NCBI GenBank assembly: GCA_023205875.1
Contig: CP060764.1
Coordinates: 1-64,000, forward strand
DNA length: 64,000 nucleotides
Reading direction: 5' to 3'
Origin: Chloropicon primus
Taxonomy: Eukaryota
Shown here in pieces: positions 3,468 through 54,004 of the stretch (position 1 is its first letter; the number at the start of each line of letters is the position of its first letter). A program made the translations under genes and the position numbers. Below the pieces are notes generated by a model, which did not search any database, had not been told where the DNA came from, and was given only the letters and a program-made list of their open reading frames with translations.

Positions 3468-4210
3468 TCATTTTTTTTCCTTTTCAAGCGAGTCGTCGTC
3501 GTCGGTTGTCGCGCGTTTTATCGTGTCTTCTTCGCTCCGCCGAGGCCCCGCCGCCGTGGCGTGCTGGTGGTACACCTTCCCCATTTCCCTGTAGTCCACT
3601 GTGAGCTCGGTTCCCTGGCGGATCGTGTCCTTGGCCACGTAAGTGTTGAAGCCGTTCTCCTCCGCGCACTCGACGAATTGGATGTTGGGCCTATCGCTGT
3701 GGTTCAAGTACCAGGAGACATCCAGGGTATTTGTTCCCGTGGCGTTCACTCCGTAGAGCAGGTCCCCCGATGCCGTCGTGGCCTCCCTCTCCATTCCAGT
3801 TCGGTTGCACTCCTCGGTGAGAGGGGCGAAGAAGCTCTTGATGAGTTCGAGCACTGCGGTCGACCCCGCCCTCCTGGAGACCTCCCGCACCTCCGTCTCA
3901 GTGAGCGTCACCATGGTTTCCCTCCTGAGGAGTCCCTCGTTGCAGGACGTGAATGGATTGGTCCCCTTGGGTATGTCCCTGATGGCGATGACACCCACCC
4001 CCTCGATGTCGCTCACCCCGAGCTTCACGTACACCTCCGAGCCCAGCCACCTCACCAGTTCCCTCTTCCATACTGCAGAACAACAAGAAGAAGAACAACA
4101 AGAAGAAGAATCCTTGTCCTTTGGTGACGCAGATGGTGAAGCAGATGGTGCTGTGGTGCTGGGTTTGTTTTTTCCTGGGGGTTCCGTTGAGCCCAGGAGG
4201 GGTGTTGTAG
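3468..4210 (-). pseudogene. SET-domain protein, 5'-truncated by element copy 1 (no ATG before the domain)
   Basis: SDIEGVGVIAIRDIPKG, YLNHSDRPN, IRQGTELTVDY. The frame is open back to the element end (TGA at 4223-4221) with no ATG upstream of the SET motifs. Confidence 0.75.
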
Positions 4211-4488
4211 TGTTCAGACATCAGATCAAAACAGCACACAGAAAAGTCACGAAAGGACGGTAGGGAAATCACAGTCAATACTGGAAGCACAAAGGCAAGT
4301 TCTCCTTTCCACTGAAGAGGCCGGCCCCTACTTACCTGTTAGTTTTCTGCAAAGGTCGTTTCACCGAGTTTGTAAGTTTCTCGGCAGGGTAATTCAGCCC
4401 TACCACGACCATTCCACCGTACATGAACGAATACTTCCGCCCACGCACGGCAGCCCGTACTAACAAACGTATGTGCAACCCTGAGGAG
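4190..4488 (-). ncRNA. Candidate omegaRNA, copy 1: scaffold 4488-4211 plus flank-derived guide (CUACAACACCCCUCCUGGGC)
   Basis: Non-coding right end conserved with copy 2, with stem-loops; position matches TnpB/Fanzor loci. Exact RNA ends unknown. Confidence 0.65.
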
Positions 4489-6066
4489 TTACACACTTTT
4501 TGGTTGACGCAAGTGCTTCAGGAGGACGTTGCGTGCCCCGTTCACATCCCGACCGCACTTGAAGCCACACTTCTGGCACTTGTACACCTCTGCTCCACCC
4601 AGGTTCTTCTTGATGTGTCCGCACCTGCCACAGGTCTTGGAGGTGTACTCCTCCGTCACGATCGCCAGCTCACTGCCGTGCAAGAGCACCTTGGAAGCCA
4701 AGAACGTTCTGAACGCATAGTGCCTCAACGTCAAGAGCGTGCGAGCCGTCTTCTTCCTGATCACTCGGCGTCTCCCGTTGTTGTTCTTCTTCACCATGTC
4801 TTGGGACTTGAACTCCGGGAGGAGGATTGTGTCGAACCTCCTGCATAGATCGTTGGCTACCTTTTTGTGAAGCTCGTTCGTCAGACCTCGAAGTTTCTCC
4901 ATGCAGGCGTATTGCTGTCTCTTCAAGTCGCGGCGGTCGAGGTAAGGGAGCTTCACCTTGGGATCTTCGCGCTCGGAAATGATCTCATCAATCCTCCGGC
5001 AGAGGTGGAACAGCCTCGCGAAGCCTCGCTCGCCCGTGGCATACTCCCCGACGCCTTCTTGCGGCGAGTACGACGTCTGAAAGGTCCTGACTCCCGGATC
5101 CAGGGCGACAACCTTCCGCTTGTTCTCAGGCTTCAGGGGTGGCAGGCGATCCCATGGCGTCGCGATGGGAATGTGCATGTGGAACTGCCCAAGGCGATTT
5201 CTTGTGATCTTCACGGCACCCTCGATCTTGCCCCCGGGGATCTCCTCCGTCAAGTACAGGGGCCCGCCGGCCATCTTCTTCTTGAACACCTCCAGCTTGG
5301 TCCACTTGCGTCGTTTGTTGTGCTTGGTGTCATCCTTGTGCCTCGTGTTTGGCCTTTCGATCGTCTCCACGTTCTTTAACTCTCTTGCATCAATTTCAAT
5401 GGTCCAAGAACTCGGTTGCTGACGTTGACGATACTTGAGAACGAAGCGGTGCCCCTTCTCCTCGCCGCGCTCCTTCATCGCTTCCTGCTTCGCGATGTTC
5501 GAATCCCATGCCTTGATGAGACTTCGCACGGCAGCTTGTCTGATGGCACAGGGGGTATCCTTCAGCCAAGGATGCTTCTGATTTACAAAGGCCCCGCTAA
5601 CGTAGTCCCGGTCCTTGGCCACTTCGGTGCGAAAAGCTCTGCCTCCAATTTGGCTCTCGAGTCTCTTCTCTCTGGCCGCGAAAAGCTCTGCCTCCTGTTT
5701 TGTCCATGGCCGTGGAGAGCATTGGATTTCTTTCAGCTCTTTCTTCAGGCCCTCAAAGACCTCAGGGCCTCGAGGTTTGGCCGTCACAAATCTGTCCAGC
5801 AGGACGGTCCAAACCAGCGGAAAACGCTCCTTCTTGACCGCCTCCAAACACTTGTTGTATGTGAAACGCGCAGCTCCCATCCAGTTGCAAAGGCACTTCG
5901 CCTGCTCAGGGTTCAAGCGCATCCTCAGCTTCCTCGTCCGTATCACCGTTCGCTCCGACAATACCTTGGAGGTCTTCAGTTTCTGCCCCTCTTCCTTTTG
6001 GCGGGCGGCTGCAATGTCTCGACGGATACCACAAGATCTTCTGGAAGGTTCAAGCACGACCTCCAT
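4489..6066 (-). CDS. Fanzor2/TnpB-like RNA-guided RuvC endonuclease (first ATG 6066; GTG at 6081)
   Basis: N-terminal RTRKLRMRLNPEQ..WMGAARFTYN; RuvC-I ALDPGVRTF; VTEEYTSKTC; Zn finger CGRC..CQKC; RuvC-III RDVNGARN. Confidence 0.93.
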   Translation of the reverse strand: MEVVLEPSRRSCGIRRDIAAARQKEEGQKLKTSKVLSERTVIRTRKLRMRLNPEQAKCLCNWMGAARFTYNKCLEAVKKERFPLVWTVLLDRFVTAKPRGPEVFEGLKKELKEIQCSPRPWTKQEAELFAAREKRLESQIGGRAFRTEVAKDRDYVSGAFVNQKHPWLKDTPCAIRQAAVRSLIKAWDSNIAKQEAMKERGEEKGHRFVLKYRQRQQPSSWTIEIDARELKNVETIERPNTRHKDDTKHNKRRKWTKLEVFKKKMAGGPLYLTEEIPGGKIEGAVKITRNRLGQFHMHIPIATPWDRLPPLKPENKRKVVALDPGVRTFQTSYSPQEGVGEYATGERGFARLFHLCRRIDEIISEREDPKVKLPYLDRRDLKRQQYACMEKLRGLTNELHKKVANDLCRRFDTILLPEFKSQDMVKKNNNGRRRVIRKKTARTLLTLRHYAFRTFLASKVLLHGSELAIVTEEYTSKTCGRCGHIKKNLGGAEVYKCQKCGFKCGRDVNGARNVLLKHLRQPKSV

Positions 6067-6649
6067 CCCGTCTTCGGACACTTTACCTCTTCAAGTTCTC
6101 TCTTCATCGATGAGAACCAGGTCTTCTTCACGCTGTCGCCCGCCAAGCCACCCGGCTGCTTCCTGCTTTCTTCCCCTCTTGTTCTTCTTCTTCTTACCCT
6201 TCTTCTTGTTCTTCTTCTTGCCCTTCTTGCGAGGCTTCTTGCGAGGCTTGCCTGACGAGCTCGAACTCTCACCGCAGAGGAAGCCGCCTCCGGCGGCTTC
6301 CCTTACCCGCTTCCCCCGCTTCTTGCGAGGCGTGCTCGAACCCTCCTCGAAAGCAGAGGCGGGGTCGTCCAGCAGCTTCTCCTTCCGCCCCCCGCTTCTT
6401 GCGAGGCGTGCTCGAACCCTCACCCGCAGAGGCGGGGTCGTCCGCGATAGGAAGCATGCACTTCTCGTAGAGCCACTTCAACGCCTGATTCCAGAACCGA
6501 CGTAACGGCCGCTCCGTCGTCGGAGACTCCTGCCCCGACTTCGAAGCGCCCTGAGCATGACTCTCGCCAGAGTGCGACCTCCTTGTGGAACTCGTCGAGC
6601 CACTCCCCTGCTTCTCCTTTTTCTTACGGCGCTTCCCTGATCGCGCCAT
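5976..6649 (-). pseudogene. Frameshifted copy of the element's Lys/Arg-rich ORF1
   Basis: Same MARSGKRRKKK start and PAKRKRGRN end as 24696-25376, but split over three frames by small indels near 6390 and 6170. Confidence 0.6.
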
Positions 6650-7021
6650 GACGGTTATTAGGGTTTCACTCGCTGCCCTCCTCGTAACTCCTCGTAACTA
6701 TAGATTTGCCTTGTCCAGCAAGTGAGAACACGAAAAAAACATTTTGTGGGTTGTCCTTTGGGTGTGACCAAACTGGTATACACTGGAATCCCACCAACAG
6801 GGGAAAACCTCCAACAAGGGGAACGAACGAACACAAGAACACCAGACGACGACGACGACGACGACGACGAGGAGGAGGACGAGGACGAGGACGAGGAGGA
6901 CAACAAGAACATACAACCGGACTGGAGGATAACACACACACACACACACACACACACCACATAGAGATAGATAGATAGATAGAACAACGAGGAGTTTTGT
7001 GTGTTTGTGTGTTGATGGAAC

Positions 7022-9702: not shown

Positions 9703-10389
9703 TCAGACGACGGGCATGCCGGCCTTCACCCAGCCCTTGATGCCGGGCTCCAGGTTCATCACGTTCTCGTAACCCATGAAGAGGAGGGTGTTGGCCACGT
9801 CTGCACTCCTCCTTCCGCTGTTGCAGTAGACGAGGACCGGGGCCTCCTTGTCCTTCGGGAGCTCGCCGTCCCTGTTGGGCAACTCGTTTGACGTGATCCG
9901 CACGGCGCCCTCGATGTGGCCCTTGTTGAACTCCTCCTCAGACCTGAGACCCCGAGAAGAGAGAGGGAGAGAGACACACACACAGACAGAGAGAGAGAGA
10001 GAGAGAGAGAGAGGACAAGGCGGCGAGGTGTCAGGAGTCGTCATGCATCGTGCTTGTGGCTGGCAGGCGGGAAGAAGAACGTGGATCAGGACGGGGGACA
10101 CTCCTCGTCGCCCAGGACCCGCCTCAGGGAAAGAAAGGCCAAGGTTAGGTTCCCTTCCACGAGGGAGGGAGGAGGCGAAGGAAGGGGAGACTCACCTGAC
10201 GTCCAGGACGAAGGCATCGGGCTCCTGCATGGTCTCGTTGAAGATCGTGACGTTGACGTTCTTCACCTCGTGGATTGCATCATCGTCGTGAGAGTGCTCG
10301 TGGTTCTCCTCGGCAGCGGTCAAGGTCAAAGATCCCGCCGCGACCAAACCGACGAGCAGGACAATCGCAAAAACGTTTCTCCTCACCAT
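9703..10389 (-). CDS. Single-domain rhodanese with signal peptide; exons 10389-10196 and 9943-9703
   Basis: VLDVR|SEEEFNKGHIEGA, VYCNSGRRS, NLEPGIKGW; the GT-AG intron restores the frame. Confidence 0.88.
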
Positions 10390-10977
10390 CGCGTACTCTC
10401 CCTTCCTCTGCGCTTTGCTTTGCTTTACGTTTGCGTTCCGGTGTTGCGTTCCTCGAAGGCTCAGGCGTTACGTCACCTCTAGGGTTATTTTTTCTGGCGG
10501 TGGCGTTGGAGCCGCCAGGAGCCAGGAGCTTGGAGACATGAGGAGGACCAACCCAACCCCGGGGAGGAAAGGATGGTGGGACACGGGAGGCAGAATTGGG
10601 TCAGACGGCGGCGCACCAGAGGAAGTGGCAATCCGCATTGTTCAACAACAATCAGAATAGAACACGGGTGTTTCAGGAAGGTTGGGCTCCTCCCGAGGGA
10701 GTCTAGCGGTGTGTTTGAAGGCTTCTGCTTCGTGGTTTGAAGTTGTGGTCAATCGCGTTGCACCTTTAGGTGCTTCAGATACTTGTGGGGTGCTTCAAGA
10801 CACAGTTGCACCAGAACAAGAGTCCATCAGCAACTCCAGGAGGAGATTATCTTTAGCAGGAAAAAGTCTTGGTGATGGATGTTTAGAGTCTAATGTGGAA
10901 ACACTTGGCTTGGCTTGGCTTGGCGTGGGTGGAGGGCTCCGCTCCACTCTGTAATCTTGTTGTCTTGAGCTTTGGGT

Positions 10978-11709
10978 TCATTGCTGGGCGCATTCCGGGA
11001 ACACCTTGGTGTCAGGGTCGACGTCCGGCACCGAGGACATGCGATCGCACCCGAGTCCCGCGACCACCTGGAGGACTGCGAGGACAGTACGGTAAGAGGT
11101 AAGGTTTTCGGGTCAATCCAAAGCGCCTTTCGTGCCGTGCGTGTTTGCGTGTGCTCACTTACCTTGGGAGAGGAACGCCTCGTGATCGGGGCCGAGGATC
11201 CTCTCGGTGGCGTTGGTCTCGCAGAGGCAGCCCCCGCGCCAGCCGTTGGGGCCGTAAGACGCGATGAGCGGGGGGAGGGAGTCGCAGCAGGGTTCCGTGA
11301 TAGTCCCCTCGCAGCAGGGTCCGAGGGCCTCCTTGATCTCCGGGATGCTCTCCGAGGCGTTGGCGGCGTCGCCGCCCTTGTTGACCCAGCCGGCCACCGC
11401 GACGATCTCCGCCAGGCAGTTGGCGCCCAAAATGGGTGCGACGATGCCCTGGCACTCCGAGTCGAAGCCGGAGCAGGGGAGAAGCTTCTGCAGTCCTTCC
11501 ACGACGTCCGTGTCGTCAGGGGCCGCTTGGACCTGCTGGAGGGTATCCACGAGCCCCTGGACCCCTTGCTTCTCGTAATCCTTGATCAACTTGTCGCACT
11601 CCTTGGGCGGGTTGGCGCCTGCGTCCTGCGCCGCGGCCACGGTCGCCATCGCGGCGAACACAACCGAAACAACAACCGCCATCGTCCTCGTCCTCGTCCC
11701 GGTCCTCAT
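10978..11709 (-). CDS. Secreted Cys-rich protein, paralog A (2 exons)
   Basis: Signal peptide, PCC..PCC..GCLC pattern, GTAAGT donor after FLSQ, exon 2 VLQVVAGLGC..PECAQQ*. Confidence 0.75.
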
Positions 11710-12113
11710 TCTCCCTTTGTCGGTCGTCGTCGTGTGTCGCCCTGGTTCGTGCCAAAGTGAAAGCGTTACGTTACTCCTCTCGCCCAATCAGATTTTGGTT
11801 CGTCGTCTAACGCCTCGCCTCGCTCCTGTTGTCCATCGAGTGAGGGGACCGAAGCGATGAGCTATGGAAACGGAAACCTTGCACTCACTCCATCACTCCT
11901 GGGGCTCTGGCTCCTTCCATGACGATGGAGGCCCAGGATGCTAGTGGGTTGTTGTCTCTGTCTCTCTCCTTGGAAGGGGAAGGAAAAAAAGTCTTGATGC
12001 ATGACATGGTGGACCACACTTGGCTTGGGGTGGTTAACTTGGCTTGGCTTGGCTTGGCTTGGCTTGGCTTGGGGTGGAGGGCTCCTCCCTCCCTCGCGAT
12101 GGGAGGTTCACTG

Positions 12114-12952
12114 CTAGACGCATCCCGGGTACGGCACCACTTCAGGCGGCACGTTCGGTGGAGGATTGGCCAGCGTATCGCACCCGAGTTCCGCGACCAC
12201 CTGGAGGACTGCGAGGACAGTATGGTAAGAGGAGGAGGGGTCAGGTTTTCGGGTCAATCCAAAGCGCCGTTCGTGCCGTGCGTGTTTGCGTGTGCTCACT
12301 TACCTTGGGAGAGGAACGCCTCGTGATCGGGGCCGAGGATCCTCTCGGTGGCGTTGGTCTCGCAGAGGCAGCCCCCGCGCCAGCCTACGCGGCCGTACGT
12401 CGCGACGAGTGGGGTAAGAGAGACGCAGCAGACATCCGTCAGCGTCCCGCCGCAGCAGGGACCGAGGGCCTCCTTGATCTCCGGGATGCTCTCCGAGGCG
12501 TTGGCGGCGTCGCCGCCCTTCTTGACCCAGCCGTCCACCGCGAGAATCTCAGGCAGGCACGTCGCGCCCAAGATCGAAGAGAACGCAGACTGGCACTCCG
12601 AGTCGAAGCCGGAGCAGGGAAGAAGCTGCTGCAGTCCATACACGCGGTCGATCTCCGGCGCCGTTTGGACCTGCTGGAGGGTATCCACGAGCCCCTGGAC
12701 CCCTTGCTTCTCGTAATCCTTGATGAACTTGTCGCACTCCTTGGGCGGGTTGGCGGTCGGGTCCAGGCCGGTTCCGGCGAAGAAACCCGCATCAGCCGTC
12801 CCAGGCGCCACGTTGTCCTCCTGCGCCGCGGCCACGCTCACCCTCTCGGCAACAAACACCAGCAAAACAACAACAACAACACCAACCGCCACCCTTGCCC
12901 TCCTCCTCCCTTGGTCCTCCTGGCGTCGTGCCCTCTCCCTCTCCCTCGCCAT
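12114..12952 (-). CDS. Secreted Cys-rich protein, paralog B (2 exons)
   Basis: Tandem paralog of 10978-11709 with the same Cys positions and intron position. Confidence 0.75.
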
Positions 12953-24175: not shown

Positions 24176-24529
24176 TCACCTGTTTTGGTTTCTTTGGCGT
24201 CTGCTGGCGTAGTCTGTGGTGTCCGGCCCAATATCCTTGGACCCAATGTTCGTGTACGCTCCCCTAATGGCGGCCTGGGCGGACAAAGGCCTCTCCGTCT
24301 TGGTCGTCAGTGTGTTCTGGGGATCCAGCTTGGCCTGGAACCATAGAAGTGGTCCCAGCCCTAAGCCGCACAAGACAGCCCCGGCGAGGACAAGGGCCGT
24401 TCTCCTCGTGCCTGCCTTTTGGGCCTCCCTGTATTCCCTCGCTCTCCCTGGGAACGTAATCTTTGCCCTCCTCCGCACGCAACAACAAGCAACACGACCC
24501 ACGACCACGACGATCCGATCGACGACAGA
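24176..24529 (-). CDS. Small single-TM protein resembling a plant/algal family; no in-frame ATG before the element
   Basis: TM segment ALVLAGAVLCGLGLGPLLW then PLSAQAAIRGAYTNIGSKDIGPD, recalling a conserved RGxYxNxGSxDxGPD motif. Confidence 0.6.
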   Translation of the reverse strand, partial: SVVDRIVVVVGRVACCCVRRRAKITFPGRAREYREAQKAGTRRTALVLAGAVLCGLGLGPLLWFQAKLDPQNTLTTKTERPLSAQAAIRGAYTNIGSKDIGPDTTDYASRRQRNQNR

Positions 24530-24678
24530 TGTTGGAGGTTTTCCCCTGTTGGTGGGATTCCAGTGTATACCAGTTTGGTCACACCCAAAGGACAACCCAC
24601 AAAATGTTTGCTCGTGTTCTCACTTGCTGGACAAGGCCAGTCTATAGTTACGAGGAGTTACGAGGAGGGAAGCGAGTG

Positions 24679-24687
24679 AAACCCTAA
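24679..24687 (+). promoter_or_regulatory. Telo-box-like AAACCCTAA just upstream of the ORF1 ATG inside the element
   Basis: Motif ends 8 nt before ATG 24696 and is conserved in copy 1 (TTAGGGTTT, 6658-6666); preceded by tandem AGTTACGAGG x2. Confidence 0.35.
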
Positions 24688-24695
24688 TAACCGTC

Positions 24696-25376
24696 ATGGC
24701 GCGATCAGGGAAGCGCCGTAAGAAAAAGGAGAAGCAGGGGAGTGGCTCGACGAGTTCCACAAGGAGGTCGCACTCTGGCGAGAGTCATGCTCAGGGCGAT
24801 TCGAGGTCGGGGCAGGAGTCTCCGACGACGGAGCCGTTACGTCGGTTCTGGAATCAGGGTTTAGCCTGGCTCTACGCGTTGTGCCTGCTTCCTATCGCGG
24901 ACGACCCCGCCTCTGCGGGTGAGGGTTCGAGCACGCCTCGCAAGAAGCGGGGGGGGAAGCGGAAGGAGAAGCCGCTGGACGACCCCGCCTCTGCTTTCGA
25001 GGAGGGTTCGAGCACGCCTCGCAAGAAGCGGGGGGGGAAGCGGAAGGGGCGTCCGCCGGAGGCGGACGCCTCTGCGGGTGAGAGTTCGAGCTCGTCAGGC
25101 AAGCCTCGCAAGAAGCCTCGCAAGAAGGGCAAGAAGAAGAACAAGAAGAAGGGTAAGAAGAAGAAGAACAAGAGGGGGAAGAAAGCAGGGAAGCAGCCGG
25201 GTGGCTTGGCGGACGACAGCGTGAAGAAGACCTGGTTCTCATCGATCAAGAGAGAACTTGTAGAGGTAAAGTGTCCGAAGACGGGATGGAGGTCGTGCTT
25301 GAACCTTCCAGAAGATTCTGTGGTATCCGTCGAGACATTGCAGTCGCCCGCCAAAAGGAAGAGGGGCAGAAACTGA
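24696..25376 (+). CDS. Element ORF1: 226-aa Lys/Arg-rich protein with internal repeats, function unknown
   Basis: ATG-initiated ORF; DDPASA..GSSTPRKKRGG repeated; poly-Lys tract; overlaps the Fanzor start in the -1 frame. Confidence 0.55.
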   Translation: MARSGKRRKKKEKQGSGSTSSTRRSHSGESHAQGDSRSGQESPTTEPLRRFWNQGLAWLYALCLLPIADDPASAGEGSSTPRKKRGGKRKEKPLDDPASAFEEGSSTPRKKRGGKRKGRPPEADASAGESSSSSGKPRKKPRKKGKKKNKKKGKKKKNKRGKKAGKQPGGLADDSVKKTWFSSIKRELVEVKCPKTGWRSCLNLPEDSVVSVETLQSPAKRKRGRN

Positions 25377-26863
25377 AGACCTCCAAGGTATTGTCGGAGC
25401 GAACGGTGATGCGGACGAGGAAGCTTAGGATGCGCTTGAACCCTGAGCAGGCGAGAACACTTTGCAACTGGATGGGAGCTGCGCGTTTCACATACAACAA
25501 GTGTTTGGAGGCGGTCAAGAAGGAGGGTTTTCCGCTGGTTTGGACCGTCCTGCTGGACAGATTTGTGACGGCCAAACCGCGACGCCCTGAGGTCTTTGAG
25601 GGCCTGGAGAAAGAGCTGAAAGAAATCCAATGCTCTCCACGGCCATGGACAAAACAGGAGGCAGAGCTTTTCGCGGCCAGAGAGAACAGACTCGAGAGCC
25701 TCATTGGAGGCAGAGCTTTTCGCACCGAAGTGGCCAAGGACCGGGACTACGTTAGCGGGGCCTTTGTAAATCAGAAGCATCCTTGGCTGAAGGATACCCC
25801 CTGTGCCATCAGACAAGCTGCCGTGCGAAGTCTCATCAAGGCATGGGATTCGAACATCGCGAAGCAGGAAGCGATGAAGGAGCGCGGCGAGGAGAAGGGG
25901 CACCGCTTCGTTCTCAAGTATCGTCAACGTCAGCAACCGAGTTCTTGGACCATTGAAATTGATGCAAGAGAGTTAAAGAACGTGGAGACGATCGAAAGGC
26001 CAAACACGAGACACAAGGATGACACCAAGCACAAGAAACGACGCAAGTGGACCAAGCTGGAGGTGTTCAAGGAGAAGATGGCCGGCGGGCCCCTGTACTT
26101 GACGGAGGAGATCCCCGGGGGCAAGATCGAGGGTGCCGTGAAGATCACAAGAAATCGCCTTGGGCAGTTCCACATGCACATTCCCATCGCGACGCCATGG
26201 GATCGCCTGCCACCCCTGAAGCCTGAGAACAAGCGGAAGGTTGTCGCCCTGGATCCGGGAGTCAGGACCTTTCAGACGTCGTACTCGCCGCAAGAAGGCG
26301 TCGGGGAGTATGCCAAGGGCGAGCGAGGCTTCGCGAGGCTGTTCAACCTCTGCTGGAGGATTGATGAGATCATTTCCGAGCGCAAAGACCCAAAGGTGAA
26401 GCTCCCTTACCTCGACCGCCGCGACTTGAAGAGACAGCAATACGCCTGCATGGAGAAACTTCGAGGTCTGACGAACGAGCTTCACAAAAAGGTAGCCAAC
26501 GATCTATGCAGGAGGTTCGACACAATCCTCCTCCCGGAGTTCAAGTCCCAAGACATGGTGAAGAAGAACAACAACGGGAGACGCCGAGTGATCAGGAAGA
26601 AGACGGCTCGCACGCTCTTGACGTTGAGGCACTATGCGTTCAGAACGTTCTTGGCTTCCAAGGTGCTCTTGCACGGCAGTGAGCTGGCGATCGTGACGGA
26701 GGAGTACACCTCCAAGACCTGTGGCAAGTGCGGACACATCAAGGACAACCTGGGTGGAGCAGAGGTGTACAAGTGCCAGAAGTGTGGCTTCAAGTGCGGT
26801 CGGGATGTGAACGGGGCACGCAACGTCCTCCTGAAGCACTTGCGTCAACCAAAAAGTGTGTAA
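25286..26863 (+). CDS. Fanzor2/TnpB-like RNA-guided RuvC endonuclease (first ATG 25286; GTG at 25271)
   Basis: Same intact motifs as copy 1 (ALDPGVRTF, TEEYTSKTCGKC, CQKC, RDVNGARN); about 18 aa differences over 530 by eye. Confidence 0.93.
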   Translation: MEVVLEPSRRFCGIRRDIAVARQKEEGQKLKTSKVLSERTVMRTRKLRMRLNPEQARTLCNWMGAARFTYNKCLEAVKKEGFPLVWTVLLDRFVTAKPRRPEVFEGLEKELKEIQCSPRPWTKQEAELFAARENRLESLIGGRAFRTEVAKDRDYVSGAFVNQKHPWLKDTPCAIRQAAVRSLIKAWDSNIAKQEAMKERGEEKGHRFVLKYRQRQQPSSWTIEIDARELKNVETIERPNTRHKDDTKHKKRRKWTKLEVFKEKMAGGPLYLTEEIPGGKIEGAVKITRNRLGQFHMHIPIATPWDRLPPLKPENKRKVVALDPGVRTFQTSYSPQEGVGEYAKGERGFARLFNLCWRIDEIISERKDPKVKLPYLDRRDLKRQQYACMEKLRGLTNELHKKVANDLCRRFDTILLPEFKSQDMVKKNNNGRRRVIRKKTARTLLTLRHYAFRTFLASKVLLHGSELAIVTEEYTSKTCGKCGHIKDNLGGAEVYKCQKCGFKCGRDVNGARNVLLKHLRQPKSV

Positions 26864-27171
26864 CTCCTCAGGGTTGCACATACGTTTGTTAGTACGGGCT
26901 GCCGTGCGCTAAGTGGGCGGAAGTATTCGTTCATGTACGGTGGAATGGTCGTGGTAGGGCTGAATTACCCTGCCGAGAAACTTACAAACTCGGTGAAACG
27001 ACCTTTGCAGAAAACTAACAGGTAAGTAGGGGCCGGCCTCCTCTTTCAGTGGAAAGGAGAACTTGCCTTTGTGCTTCCAGTATTGACTGTGATTTCCCTA
27101 CCGTCCTTTCGTGACTTTTCTGTGTGCTGTTTTGATCTGATGTCTGAACACCATAACAAAAGAATAAGATA
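26864..27171 (+). ncRNA. Candidate omegaRNA, copy 2: scaffold to ~27150 plus guide (CCAUAACAAAAGAAUAAGAU)
   Basis: Stems GGTCGT/ACGACC (26947/26998), GGTAGGG/CCCTGCC (26953/26968), CCGAG/CTCGG (26973/26989), CTGCC/GGCGG (26899/26916). Confidence 0.65.
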
Positions 27172-27413
27172 TTGATATACTTATTGGCTTTGATGCATGG
27201 TTTGGTTTGATCGTCTCTTCCACTTTCCCAGGAGGAGAGGAACTGCAACTTGGATGGAGGGGAACCTTGGCTTTGATGCATTGTGTTGTGGGTAGGTAGG
27301 GAGGGGGAGAGTCGTGTTGGCGGGTGAGGTGTTGGAGGGGATCCACGGCTGGGGTTCTGTGCGGGATCAATCCGGTGGATGCGAACAAGAATCAAAGGTG
27401 TTGATAAGAAAGA

Positions 27414-35817: not shown

Positions 35818-36450
35818 GGTTGGTGTGGTTCCCCACTTCCTTGGCCAAACTTAAAAGCTTGCCCCTCTCCCCTCTCCTTGAAGCTCTGCTCCTCCCGGAA
35901 GTAGTGCGTGTCGTGTCGTCCCGAGTCCCAAGACCTCAGAGTCGACCGCTCGGTCCGTCACCCGGCAACGCTATAGGCTTTAGGTCCGCAGGCAGGTCAC
36001 ACGCTCGTCCTCTCCCACTTCGTTGCTCGTATCCCTTCGCCCCGTCCTTTCCTTCATCTTTGCCTCCCACAGCCAAGGAGGTGGTTTCAAAGCCAACGTT
36101 GAAAGCCACCCCAAGAGAAAACGAACACAAGCAAGAGAAAACCCTATTCACGAGGGAGCAAGCGTCTCGCCCCAGCAGCAAAACTTGCTCCCAGCACCTT
36201 TGCACAAAGGTCTGTAGCTCCCAGGTAGGTCAAGCCCAGTCAAACCCTTTCCAGCGCCTTTGGAGCACGAACACACACAGAGGGACACAAACACAATCAA
36301 TCAAGAAGAAACCGAGGAAACCCTCCCTATTGACCCAACCTCACAACACCAGCGGTCTCGTCCCTAGCACACCCTTTGGCTCCCCCAGCACCGTTTCCAA
36401 AATTGTCCATGGGTTCCCTGCCCTTTTCGATTTGAACTGTGACGTAACTC

Positions 36451-36530
36451 AAACCCTAAAACCTCTAAAACCCTAAAACCTCTAAAACCCTAAAACCTCT
36501 AAAACCCTAAAACCACTAAAGACCTAAAAC
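36451..36530. repeat. Interstitial telomere-like array, (CCCTAAAA-CCTCTAAAA)n
   Basis: 17-bp dimeric unit, about 4.5 copies, between divergent genes. Confidence 0.85.
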
Positions 36531-36921
36531 GATCGAGATCTTATTGGCGGGTGAGGGGGTCGGAAGCTCCTGGGTGCTGATTGCGACGAGGACCGACGAG
36601 AAGGGCGACGGCGGAGAGGGAAGAGGCGTCTTTTGGTTCGGCCTTTGGAATCTACGTCCTCAGGGCTTTCCGTGGACCCCTCATTCGAAGGATTTGGTGA
36701 CCGGAGTGGCCGGAGAGGTCCGTCGGAAGGGCAGGGAGGCAGGGAGAGGGTGGAGCAGAGGGGGCAGAGGGGAGGCGTTCGGGAAGGAAGGGAGGAGAGG
36801 GGCGGGTCAGGGAGGGAGGGTCCCTGCGGATGGAACATTGGTATCGTGAGGAACCTGGTACGAGGGGGAGGAAGACGACGGGAACAGAACGGGAGGGCAG
36901 GAGGAGGAAGCGAGCGTGTGG

Positions 36922-53899: not shown

Positions 53900-54004
53900 A
53901 ACCTGTATCGCCTGTAAGGACGCACACGACGACAGAAAGCCGCATCTCGATGAATCGCCGCTTCATCACGCAAGACAGAGAAGAGAGTGACGGATGCCGA
54001 TTGC

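Follow-up and report, generated by a model that had tools for sequence, protein, structure and literature searches.

How can a Fanzor nuclease obtain a usable guide together with a target motif after its element has moved from the IS607 mode to cut-and-paste transposition? According to the text of a previous study (PMC10711439), the scaffold takes up the new end, a solution suited to fixed duplications only. A locus of Chloropicon primus with variable duplications raises this question again. Two inverted copies of a TnpB-like gene and its element, A and B, are present in the window, i.e., the whole stretch of 64,000 nt that was analyzed (Table 1). The element itself is already known, as Yoon et al. 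describe its family as Fanzor2*: the locus is the C. primus transposon of that study, which is non-autonomous, has degenerate inverted ends, and makes a 5-nt duplication of variable sequence (PMC10711439; 10.1101/2023.08.09.552727), and four C. primus proteins are found in the curated table (PMC10711439).

The ends of both copies are of the Fanzor2* kind. Copy A reads CCCCT/TGTT..AACA/CCCCT, with a perfect duplication (5/5), and copy B reads ACAGA/TGTT..AACA/AAAGA, with a duplication of 4/5; the left repeat TGTTGGAG matches the reversed right ends at 7/8 (copy A) and 5/8 (copy B) positions. No transposase accompanies them, the best TnpA match in the window being non-significant (E 0.055), and the marks of IS607 elements (a serine recombinase TnpA and duplication-free insertion) were absent from the window and present in one relative, L005. 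A flank swap between the inverted copies was considered and dropped, since each copy has its own duplication. The blastn searches with both element ends against 141 loci returned weak matches only (E 0.48 or worse), and the right-end pattern had zero exact matches among the viral contigs searched.

Downstream of the stop codon, the two copies align over 279 bases with 0 mismatches and two indels, of 5 nt (26908–26912) and 4 nt (about 27041–27044). An earlier sequence-only reading of this region had noted both the near-identity and the two indels, which are real, although the first had been taken for 4 nt; its further claim that identity stops abruptly after GAACAC (27151) did not hold, as the alignment continues to 27158 with only two mismatches (27152 and 27154). 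We compared these positions with the contigs of several runs (X1, X2, X4–X7), which are assemblies with guessed RNA or DNA labels that show neither strand, RNA ends nor level. Contigs of X1, X2, and X6 match through 27158 without differing letters, the summed depth of X1 and X2 is ~10,000–12,700 up to 27157 and then collapses, and in X6 other flanks begin at 27158 and 27159. Because the duplication of copy A is perfect and contigs of other copies reach 27158, the right end of the element is 27158 and not 27151. A short derivative in run X5 keeps only 24530–24645 and the end from 27101, which suggests that the last part of the tail serves transposition and not the guide RNA. Loose ends at 24637, 24673, and 27101 were seen in X1, alongside the X5 joint 24645/27101; Fanzor-less short derivatives or sister elements have the first ~110 and last ~58 bases in common, and they may lead to the autonomous transposase partner. 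The coding parts of copies A and B differ at 26 of 1592 bases. Position 26961 is T in both window copies and C in all four runs compared, a private shared variant for which a recent duplication or conversion is offered as the cause. Elsewhere, the window holds telomere-type CCTAAAA repeats (100–290) with an interstitial array (36431–36532), tandem arrays with units of ~104 and ~147 nt (57905–59174; 54004–54430), and a 300-nt direct duplication (11095–11394 with 12236–12535).

Table 1. Coordinates of the observed and predicted features of both element copies in the window
Feature	Positions	Strand	Basis or remark
Whole Fanzor2* element, copy B	24530..27158	+	Alignment with copy A; contig ends at 24530 and 27158
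Left target-site duplication ACAGA, copy B	24525..24529	+	4/5 match to 27159–27163
Left terminal inverted repeat TGTTGGAG, copy B	24530..24537	+	Match counts to the right ends in the text
Fanzor2 gene, copy B	24696..26863	+	Frame break near 25362 when compared with the 723-aa family protein
Predicted omegaRNA scaffold core, copy B	26877..27021	+	Folding, covariation, published register; 5′ start may reach the stop codon or beyond
Small hairpin CGT-[TTGTTAGT]-ACG	26883..26896	+	Loop 26888–26893 is the 5′ pseudoknot strand
Long hairpin	26899..26943	+	18 perfect pairs in copy A; bulged by a 5-nt insertion in copy B
Branched stem (from the sequence-only reading)	26947..27003	+	Folding
3′ pseudoknot strand ACTAAC plus AG	27014..27021	+	Predicted scaffold end, putative relic IS607 right end
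5′ splice site GTAAGT	27022..27027	+	First guide-slot base; X4, X5, X7 contigs leave, X6 contigs split
137-nt tail (right end of the transposon, probable body of the intron)	27022..27158	+	Unstructured, T-rich, last 64 nt AG-free
Candidate branch point CTGAT	27137..27141	+	Motif position
Right terminal inverted repeat CCATAACA, copy B	27151..27158	+	Holds TAAC 27154–27157
Right target-site duplication AAAGA, copy B	27159..27163	+	First downstream AG (27161–27162), candidate acceptor
Predicted guide, copy B, assuming the first AG as acceptor	27163..27182	+	Deduced
Whole element, copy A	4203..6816	-	Alignment with copy B; several frame breaks in 5′ part
Left target-site duplication CCCCT, copy A	6817..6821	-	Identical to 4198..4202
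Predicted scaffold core, copy A	4336..4475	-	Splice donor next (4335–4330)
Right target-site duplication CCCCT, copy A	4198..4202	-	Identical to 6817..6821
Candidate host acceptors, copy A	4073..4175	-	First CAG ends 4175; pyrimidine-rich CAG ends 4073

The protein is a predicted RNA-guided DNA cutter of the Fanzor2 type. Published descriptions of this type list a RuvC-I DPG, a proline at the canonical glutamate, a shifted glutamate before the zinc finger, and a RuvC-III RD (PMC10711439, PMC13565253); both copies and protein P0003 carry ALDPG, LLPEF, TEEYTSKTC, and RDVN, and the nuclease-bearing part of copy B (25271–26863) is open, with the DPG, shifted E, and RD motifs. The closest proteins are annotated as putative IS605 transposases of C. 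primus (88–99% identity, main cluster of 46 members), the nearest relatives of the protein share only 51–59% identity, and the best solved relative is the mimivirus Fanzor2 ApmFz2 (PDB 9B0L; E 1e−39 with the family profile), with domains of the TnpB type. The profile alignment with ApmFz2 missed the motif-reading residues, so no target motif was obtained from the protein. As assembled, both copies have a frame break near 25362 in place of an intact full-length frame, and copy A has further breaks upstream; 25359–25362 and the equivalent in copy A contain one G fewer than in all four runs compared, a difference that a misassembled G run may explain. Full-length proteins of 722–723 aa are annotated on many chromosomes. 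An intron or programmed frameshift linking the two upstream frames was dropped as an explanation, given that the family protein is in one frame and the four runs have the additional base. A related Fanzor2 with 51% identity (L003:1335-3393) lies between 78-nt inverted repeats, without TnpA and without the pseudoknot motif described below, and represents a separate capture by an inverted-repeat element.

The sequence-only reading had considered all 290 nt after the stop codon as one structured scaffold. Fold z-scores against shuffled sequences did not agree with this: the whole 288-nt region scored −0.68 in copy B, no better than shuffles, and −2.14 in copy A, the tails were unstructured (+0.49 for 27022–27158 and +0.56), and the signal was located in the 5′ part of copy A (about the first ~158 nt after the stop, −4.84) and in the middle of copy B (−2.52), with the scaffold likely ending at 27021. 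The stems listed in that reading had mixed fates, as GGTCGT/ACGACC (26947–52/26998–27003) and GGTAGGG/CCCTGCC form when the middle is folded alone, CCGAG/CTCGG shares CC with CCCTGCC and retains 3 pairs, and CTGCC pairs with ACGGTGG instead of GGCGG. A fold that keeps the small hairpin contains these main stems; leaving aside the pseudoknot (about −4.1 kcal/mol), it lies 3.8 kcal/mol above the free minimum. No Rfam match was obtained up to E 1 in 26700–27300.

The loop of the small hairpin (26888–26893) pairs with ACTAAC at 27014–27019. The same small hairpin, with compensatory changes, is found in four metagenomic relatives (L001, L002, L004, and L005; 40–56% protein identity) whose RNA middle is unalignable; it lies 16–22 nt after the stop and has an 8-nt loop, the last six bases of which pair with a downstream hexamer that is followed by GG or CG. 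Across copy B and these four loci, 30/30 pseudoknot pairs are standard, with two-sided changes at 4/6 positions, and 15/15 pairs of the inner stem are standard, with two-sided changes at 2/3 positions (pairs were counted by script, as the automatic alignment misplaced the hairpin of the window). An invariant AA precedes the internal loop partner in the window and the relatives. The sequence-only reading was right in assigning the region to an omegaRNA, here that of a Fanzor2 element, and several of its stems belong to the scaffold. As a strict motif, the pseudoknot was found in 6 of the 8 closest regions (shuffled mean 0.08, maximum 1), scored on the loci from which the motif was drawn; over all 106 regions it was not enriched (7 vs. 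a shuffled maximum of 7), and it was absent from L003 and L007. A relaxed motif was found in 38 of 98 (shuffled mean 21.4, maximum 32), a figure of little weight since the loci are non-independent.

The register of this pairing agrees with published structures. In ApmFz2 the pseudoknot engages nt −4 to 0, with G:C(−2) (PMC11832414), and in ISXfa1 the tested pair is U-130:A-3 (10.1101/2023.08.09.552727); when G27021 is set as 0, G26888:C27019 falls at −2 and T26889:A27018 at −3. Multi-copy groups that were not used for the motif point the same way: copy identity stops exactly 2 nt past the loop partner in the L070 group, which ends in AG (3/6 pairs diverge, all at that break), and in the L096 group (9/15 pairs diverge, all at that break), and 8 of the 10 diverging copy groups had zero loop partner at their break. 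L070, L072, L073, and L084 represent a multi-copy TnpB/Fanzor2 element whose right end is formed by the loop partner and AG, i.e., a natural AG-ended scaffold; L084 is a contig of a giant-virus bin.

Since the loop partner lies at 27014–27019, the scaffold very probably ends at G27021, 137 nt inside the mobile end at 27158, with ..ACUAACAG directly before the guide slot. The pairing of a 5′ loop with the last scaffold bases, typical of TnpB/Fanzor2 omegaRNAs, is therefore found at this internal position and not at the element end, and the usual coincidence of scaffold end and mobile right end, with the adjacent flank DNA as guide, is missing here (27021 vs. 27158). IS607 TnpA sequence is carried by L001, L002, L004, L005, and L006 and not by the window, so position 27021 is likely a relic IS607 right end.

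The base following G27021 opens a GTAAGT splice donor. The string AGGTAAGT occurs 4 times in the window with both strands counted, twice in these elements. In 3/3 runs labeled as probable RNA (X4, X5, and X7), a contig leaves the element at 27021/27022; X4 and X5 continue into the same sequence for at least 255 letters, which, like its acceptor, is not in the window, and X7 continues into another. The letters joined in X7 are those found behind ..CATAACA-AG at another copy in X6, which would give an exact GT-AG intron whose acceptor AG opens the duplication and lies 2 nt past the end of the element. This is the single junction traced to an acceptor, it spans two runs with different organism labels, and AGG stands on both of its sides, so a DNA deletion would look identical. 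An AG supplied by the host within the duplication is a splice signal in introners as well. Introners are likewise DNA transposons supplying splice signals (PMC12130899), the difference being that here only the last 137 nt would be spliced and not the whole element; the text searched of that paper mentions neither Fanzor nor Chloropicon.

At 27021, one X6 contig stops (depth 282), one differs at the next letter (depth 195), and one reads on (depth 34). For the runs labeled as probable DNA, a contig of depth 4700 in X1 crosses 27021/27022, and none of the loose ends listed for X1 and X2 (19/45 and 12/13) lies at this point, although a contig of X2, too, stops at 27021. The tail has a CTGAT near its end, CTRAY being the branch-point consensus, and other copies contain a variable tandem insertion near 27036–27041 with a ~12-nt pyrimidine-rich unit. 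Together with 2–28 flank bases, the tail would make an intron of 139–165 nt, near the mean intron length of 152–154 nt given for C. primus (PMC12301720). We regard splicing at 27021/27022 as highly probable, and the GTAAGT donor at the scaffold end appears to be in use.

The best reading of these data, which we consider somewhat better than an even bet, is that splicing removes the 137-nt end and joins the scaffold to the host flank as guide. A small DNA transposon with inverted repeats would have taken in an IS607 element with Fanzor2, immediately before a 5′ splice site, and the IS607 element would have lost its own TnpA; this capture would have left 137 nt of fixed sequence between the scaffold and the new mobile end. 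Going by the published registers, the guide slot would open at 27022, where transcripts would depart, and in the contigs of the probable RNA runs one seems to resume after the AG located 2 nt past the element end. The Fanzor would bind the scaffold on the spliced transcript, trimming would leave about 15–20 host-derived guide bases, and splicing would thereby re-create in RNA the junction lost in DNA, i.e., scaffold, AG, and host flank. That the spliced host flank serves as guide is slightly favored in our judgment, and the earlier view of the guide as flanking host DNA may hold in this form, likely through the splicing step that it missed. The target motif is predicted to be NAG, because an acceptor AG precedes every spliced guide in DNA and the scaffold itself ends in AG. 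The complex is predicted to cut the vacated or empty site, prompting repair from the filled copy, and homing would work best when AG opens the duplication, as the base before AG then differs between the filled and empty alleles. Functional homing by an AG motif is put forward tentatively, at slightly less than an even chance. With the same reserve we propose spliceosome-written guides, for which the donor would lie at the scaffold-guide junction, each copy would have its host acceptor, the acceptor AG would act as target motif, and the splice choice would set the target. Loading, cutting, and self-avoidance by a spliced-guide complex are predictions of this model.

Five independent duplications were available (CCCCT of copy A, ACAGA/AAAGA of copy B, two in X6, and one before the X5 derivative), and AG was present in 4/5 of them, compared with 0.27 for random 5-mers (P about 0.02), in a tiny sample that comes partly from transcribed copies, with one flank left out, possibly that of the copy B locus. 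In copy B, the right and left duplications differ at the base before AG (CAG to AAG), a change that, as a single case, would fit an escape from self-cutting. Positions 27167–27200 of the copy B right flank are uncovered by the four runs compared, contigs of X2 and X4 diverge after 27163, and X4 and X5 carry 27184–27266 as a tandem repeat; the flank at 27164–27266 may be rearranged in the assembly. The main weakness of the proposed model concerns acceptors located within the duplication or past it, for which motif and target would both persist in the filled allele and expose it to cutting as well. For copy A, there is no AG in the duplication and none in the flank before 28 nt, and the strongest acceptor, the pyrimidine-rich CAG ending at 4073, stands directly before a SET-domain exon of the host, which would be a harmful target. 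The strong acceptor of this exon (3561–4073, − strand) is reached 130 nt past copy A on its downstream side, and the element may sit in an intron or leader of the SET-domain gene.

As an alternative to the spliced guide, which we rate as unlikely but not negligible, an unspliced omegaRNA could carry a constant internal guide, GUAAGUAGGGGCCGG, directed against Fanzor-less family members with the ancestral GG-type motif. The change from CGG to CAG would then shield the Fanzor-bearing copies, splicing would give the mRNA a host 3′ end or disarm the guide, and the expected genomic target would be the motif plus GTAAGTAGGGG outside the elements. The constant guide itself had zero other matches in the window at ≤ 3 mismatches in 15 and zero exact matches among the viral contigs searched. 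X4 and X5 contigs of probable RNA origin contain an internally deleted derivative with ..ACTAACGG and then GTAAGTAG, the latter matching the first 8–12 guide bases behind CGG. The same scaffold end would fit, the self-cutting problem would be avoided, each of the four close IS607 relatives has GG or CG at its end, and Fanzor2 motifs are described in the text of PMC13565253 as 3-nt and G-rich, whereas the AG-rich duplications would be left unexplained and a natural AG-ended relative exists (L070 group). Unspliced contigs are indeed present in X6, but the read-through contig is the shallower one (34 vs. 282, contig depth being a poor measure), and a variable tandem insertion interrupts the sequence from about guide base 15 onward. 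In this derivative, 25296 is followed by a diverged scaffold end in which CGG precedes GTAAGTAG (X4 and X5 have loose ends at 25296), and its linked variants have low depth in the DNA run X1 and high depth in the probable RNA runs.

It is improbable that the RNA spans the whole 295-nt end, with the pseudoknot formed by TAAC (27154–27157) and a guide starting from about 27160 or after the duplication, a corrected form of the idea in the sequence-only reading that has been proposed for other inverted-repeat Fanzors. In copy B and the common end form, TAAC makes 4 pairs with the same loop and is followed by two bases, but copy A lacks this terminal partner, and the internal partner has 6 pairs (−4.1 vs. 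−0.6 kcal/mol), sits as in the relatives, and keeps the invariant AA before it. The tail is identical in both copies apart from one indel and two terminal mismatches, yet it folds no better than shuffles and tolerates repeat expansions. Inclusion of inverted repeat and duplication in the scaffold is reported for Fanzor1 and apparently for Fanzor2* (text of PMC10711439); with a variable 5-nt duplication, there would be no common pre-guide motif, and the left flanks end in GACGACAGA and GTTCCCCT.

Slightly less probable still is a relic, in which the scaffold no longer guides and the junctions at 27021 are plain 3′ UTR splicing or artefacts of assembly or deletion. Both window copies are frame-broken, but full-length proteins of the family are annotated on many chromosomes and the catalytic motifs are intact; contigs cannot prove splicing, and the copies are so young that their conservation says little, while the pseudoknot is perfect despite 51–59% protein identity and an unalignable RNA middle. 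Finally, the sequence-only model taken literally, with a scaffold to GAACAC (27151) and guides CCAUAAC.. and CUACAAC.. against the empty donor alleles, would account for the copy differences at 27152 and 27154 but is hardly tenable, because 27152–27158 is element DNA common to many copies, inside the duplication-defined boundary and absent from the empty site, each of the two guides (starting at 27151 and 4210) contains 8 bases of the element, and zero loop partner of at least 4 pairs ends near 27149.

Among known systems, ApmFz2 (PDB 9B0L; PMC11832414) and the ISXfa1 TnpB reRNA have a 5′ loop that pairs with the last scaffold bases in the register observed here; in both, scaffold and mobile element end at one position and the adjacent flank is the guide, whereas in C. 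primus 137 nt belonging to the end of another transposon lie in between and TnpA is gone. The mollusc Fanzor2* MmeFz2 and the SfAV Fanzor1 were likewise captured by cut-and-paste inverted-repeat elements with duplications, according to the published text, but their duplication is of a fixed TTAN type and repeat and duplication were absorbed into the scaffold, unlike the C. primus element with its variable duplication and an old scaffold end that was apparently kept. The nearest concept is the IStron, a group I intron combined with an IS605/IS607 TnpB (10.1101/2023.11.20.567912), which likewise has a splice site at the scaffold-guide junction. As described there, IStrons are self-splicing and have their 3′ splice site at the junction, so that the scaffold is lost on splicing, which works against the guide. 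In C. primus, by contrast, the intron would be spliceosomal with its 5′ site at the junction; the scaffold would remain exonic, and the guide would be a product of splicing. An element-spanning group I ribozyme was not found (zero Rfam match in 26700–27300), and the junction is a GTAAGT donor. In the main and supplementary text of PMC10711439, figures aside, ‘splic’ occurs 0 times, and neither the RNA boundary nor an internal IS607 end is described in the text searched; the C. primus RNA may have been drawn earlier in published figures. Similarly, the open-access text searched, again figures aside, in which two papers name both Fanzor and Chloropicon, contains no description of spliceosomal splicing at a Fanzor scaffold-guide junction. 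What appears to be new is that the scaffold stops 137 nt before the end of the element, at a splice donor apparently in use.

For the construction of a nuclease from this family, the boundary to be used would be a scaffold of about 145–160 nt ending at 27021, and not 290 nt. If the constant-guide alternative were true, the nuclease would be driving itself through its own transposon family. If the spliced-guide reading is true, it predicts the guide starts, an NAG motif, and AG-biased insertion sites, it would explain the programmability of a pseudoknot-bound Fanzor2 with random 5-nt duplications, and it would represent a second route, via host splicing, to a programmable guide.
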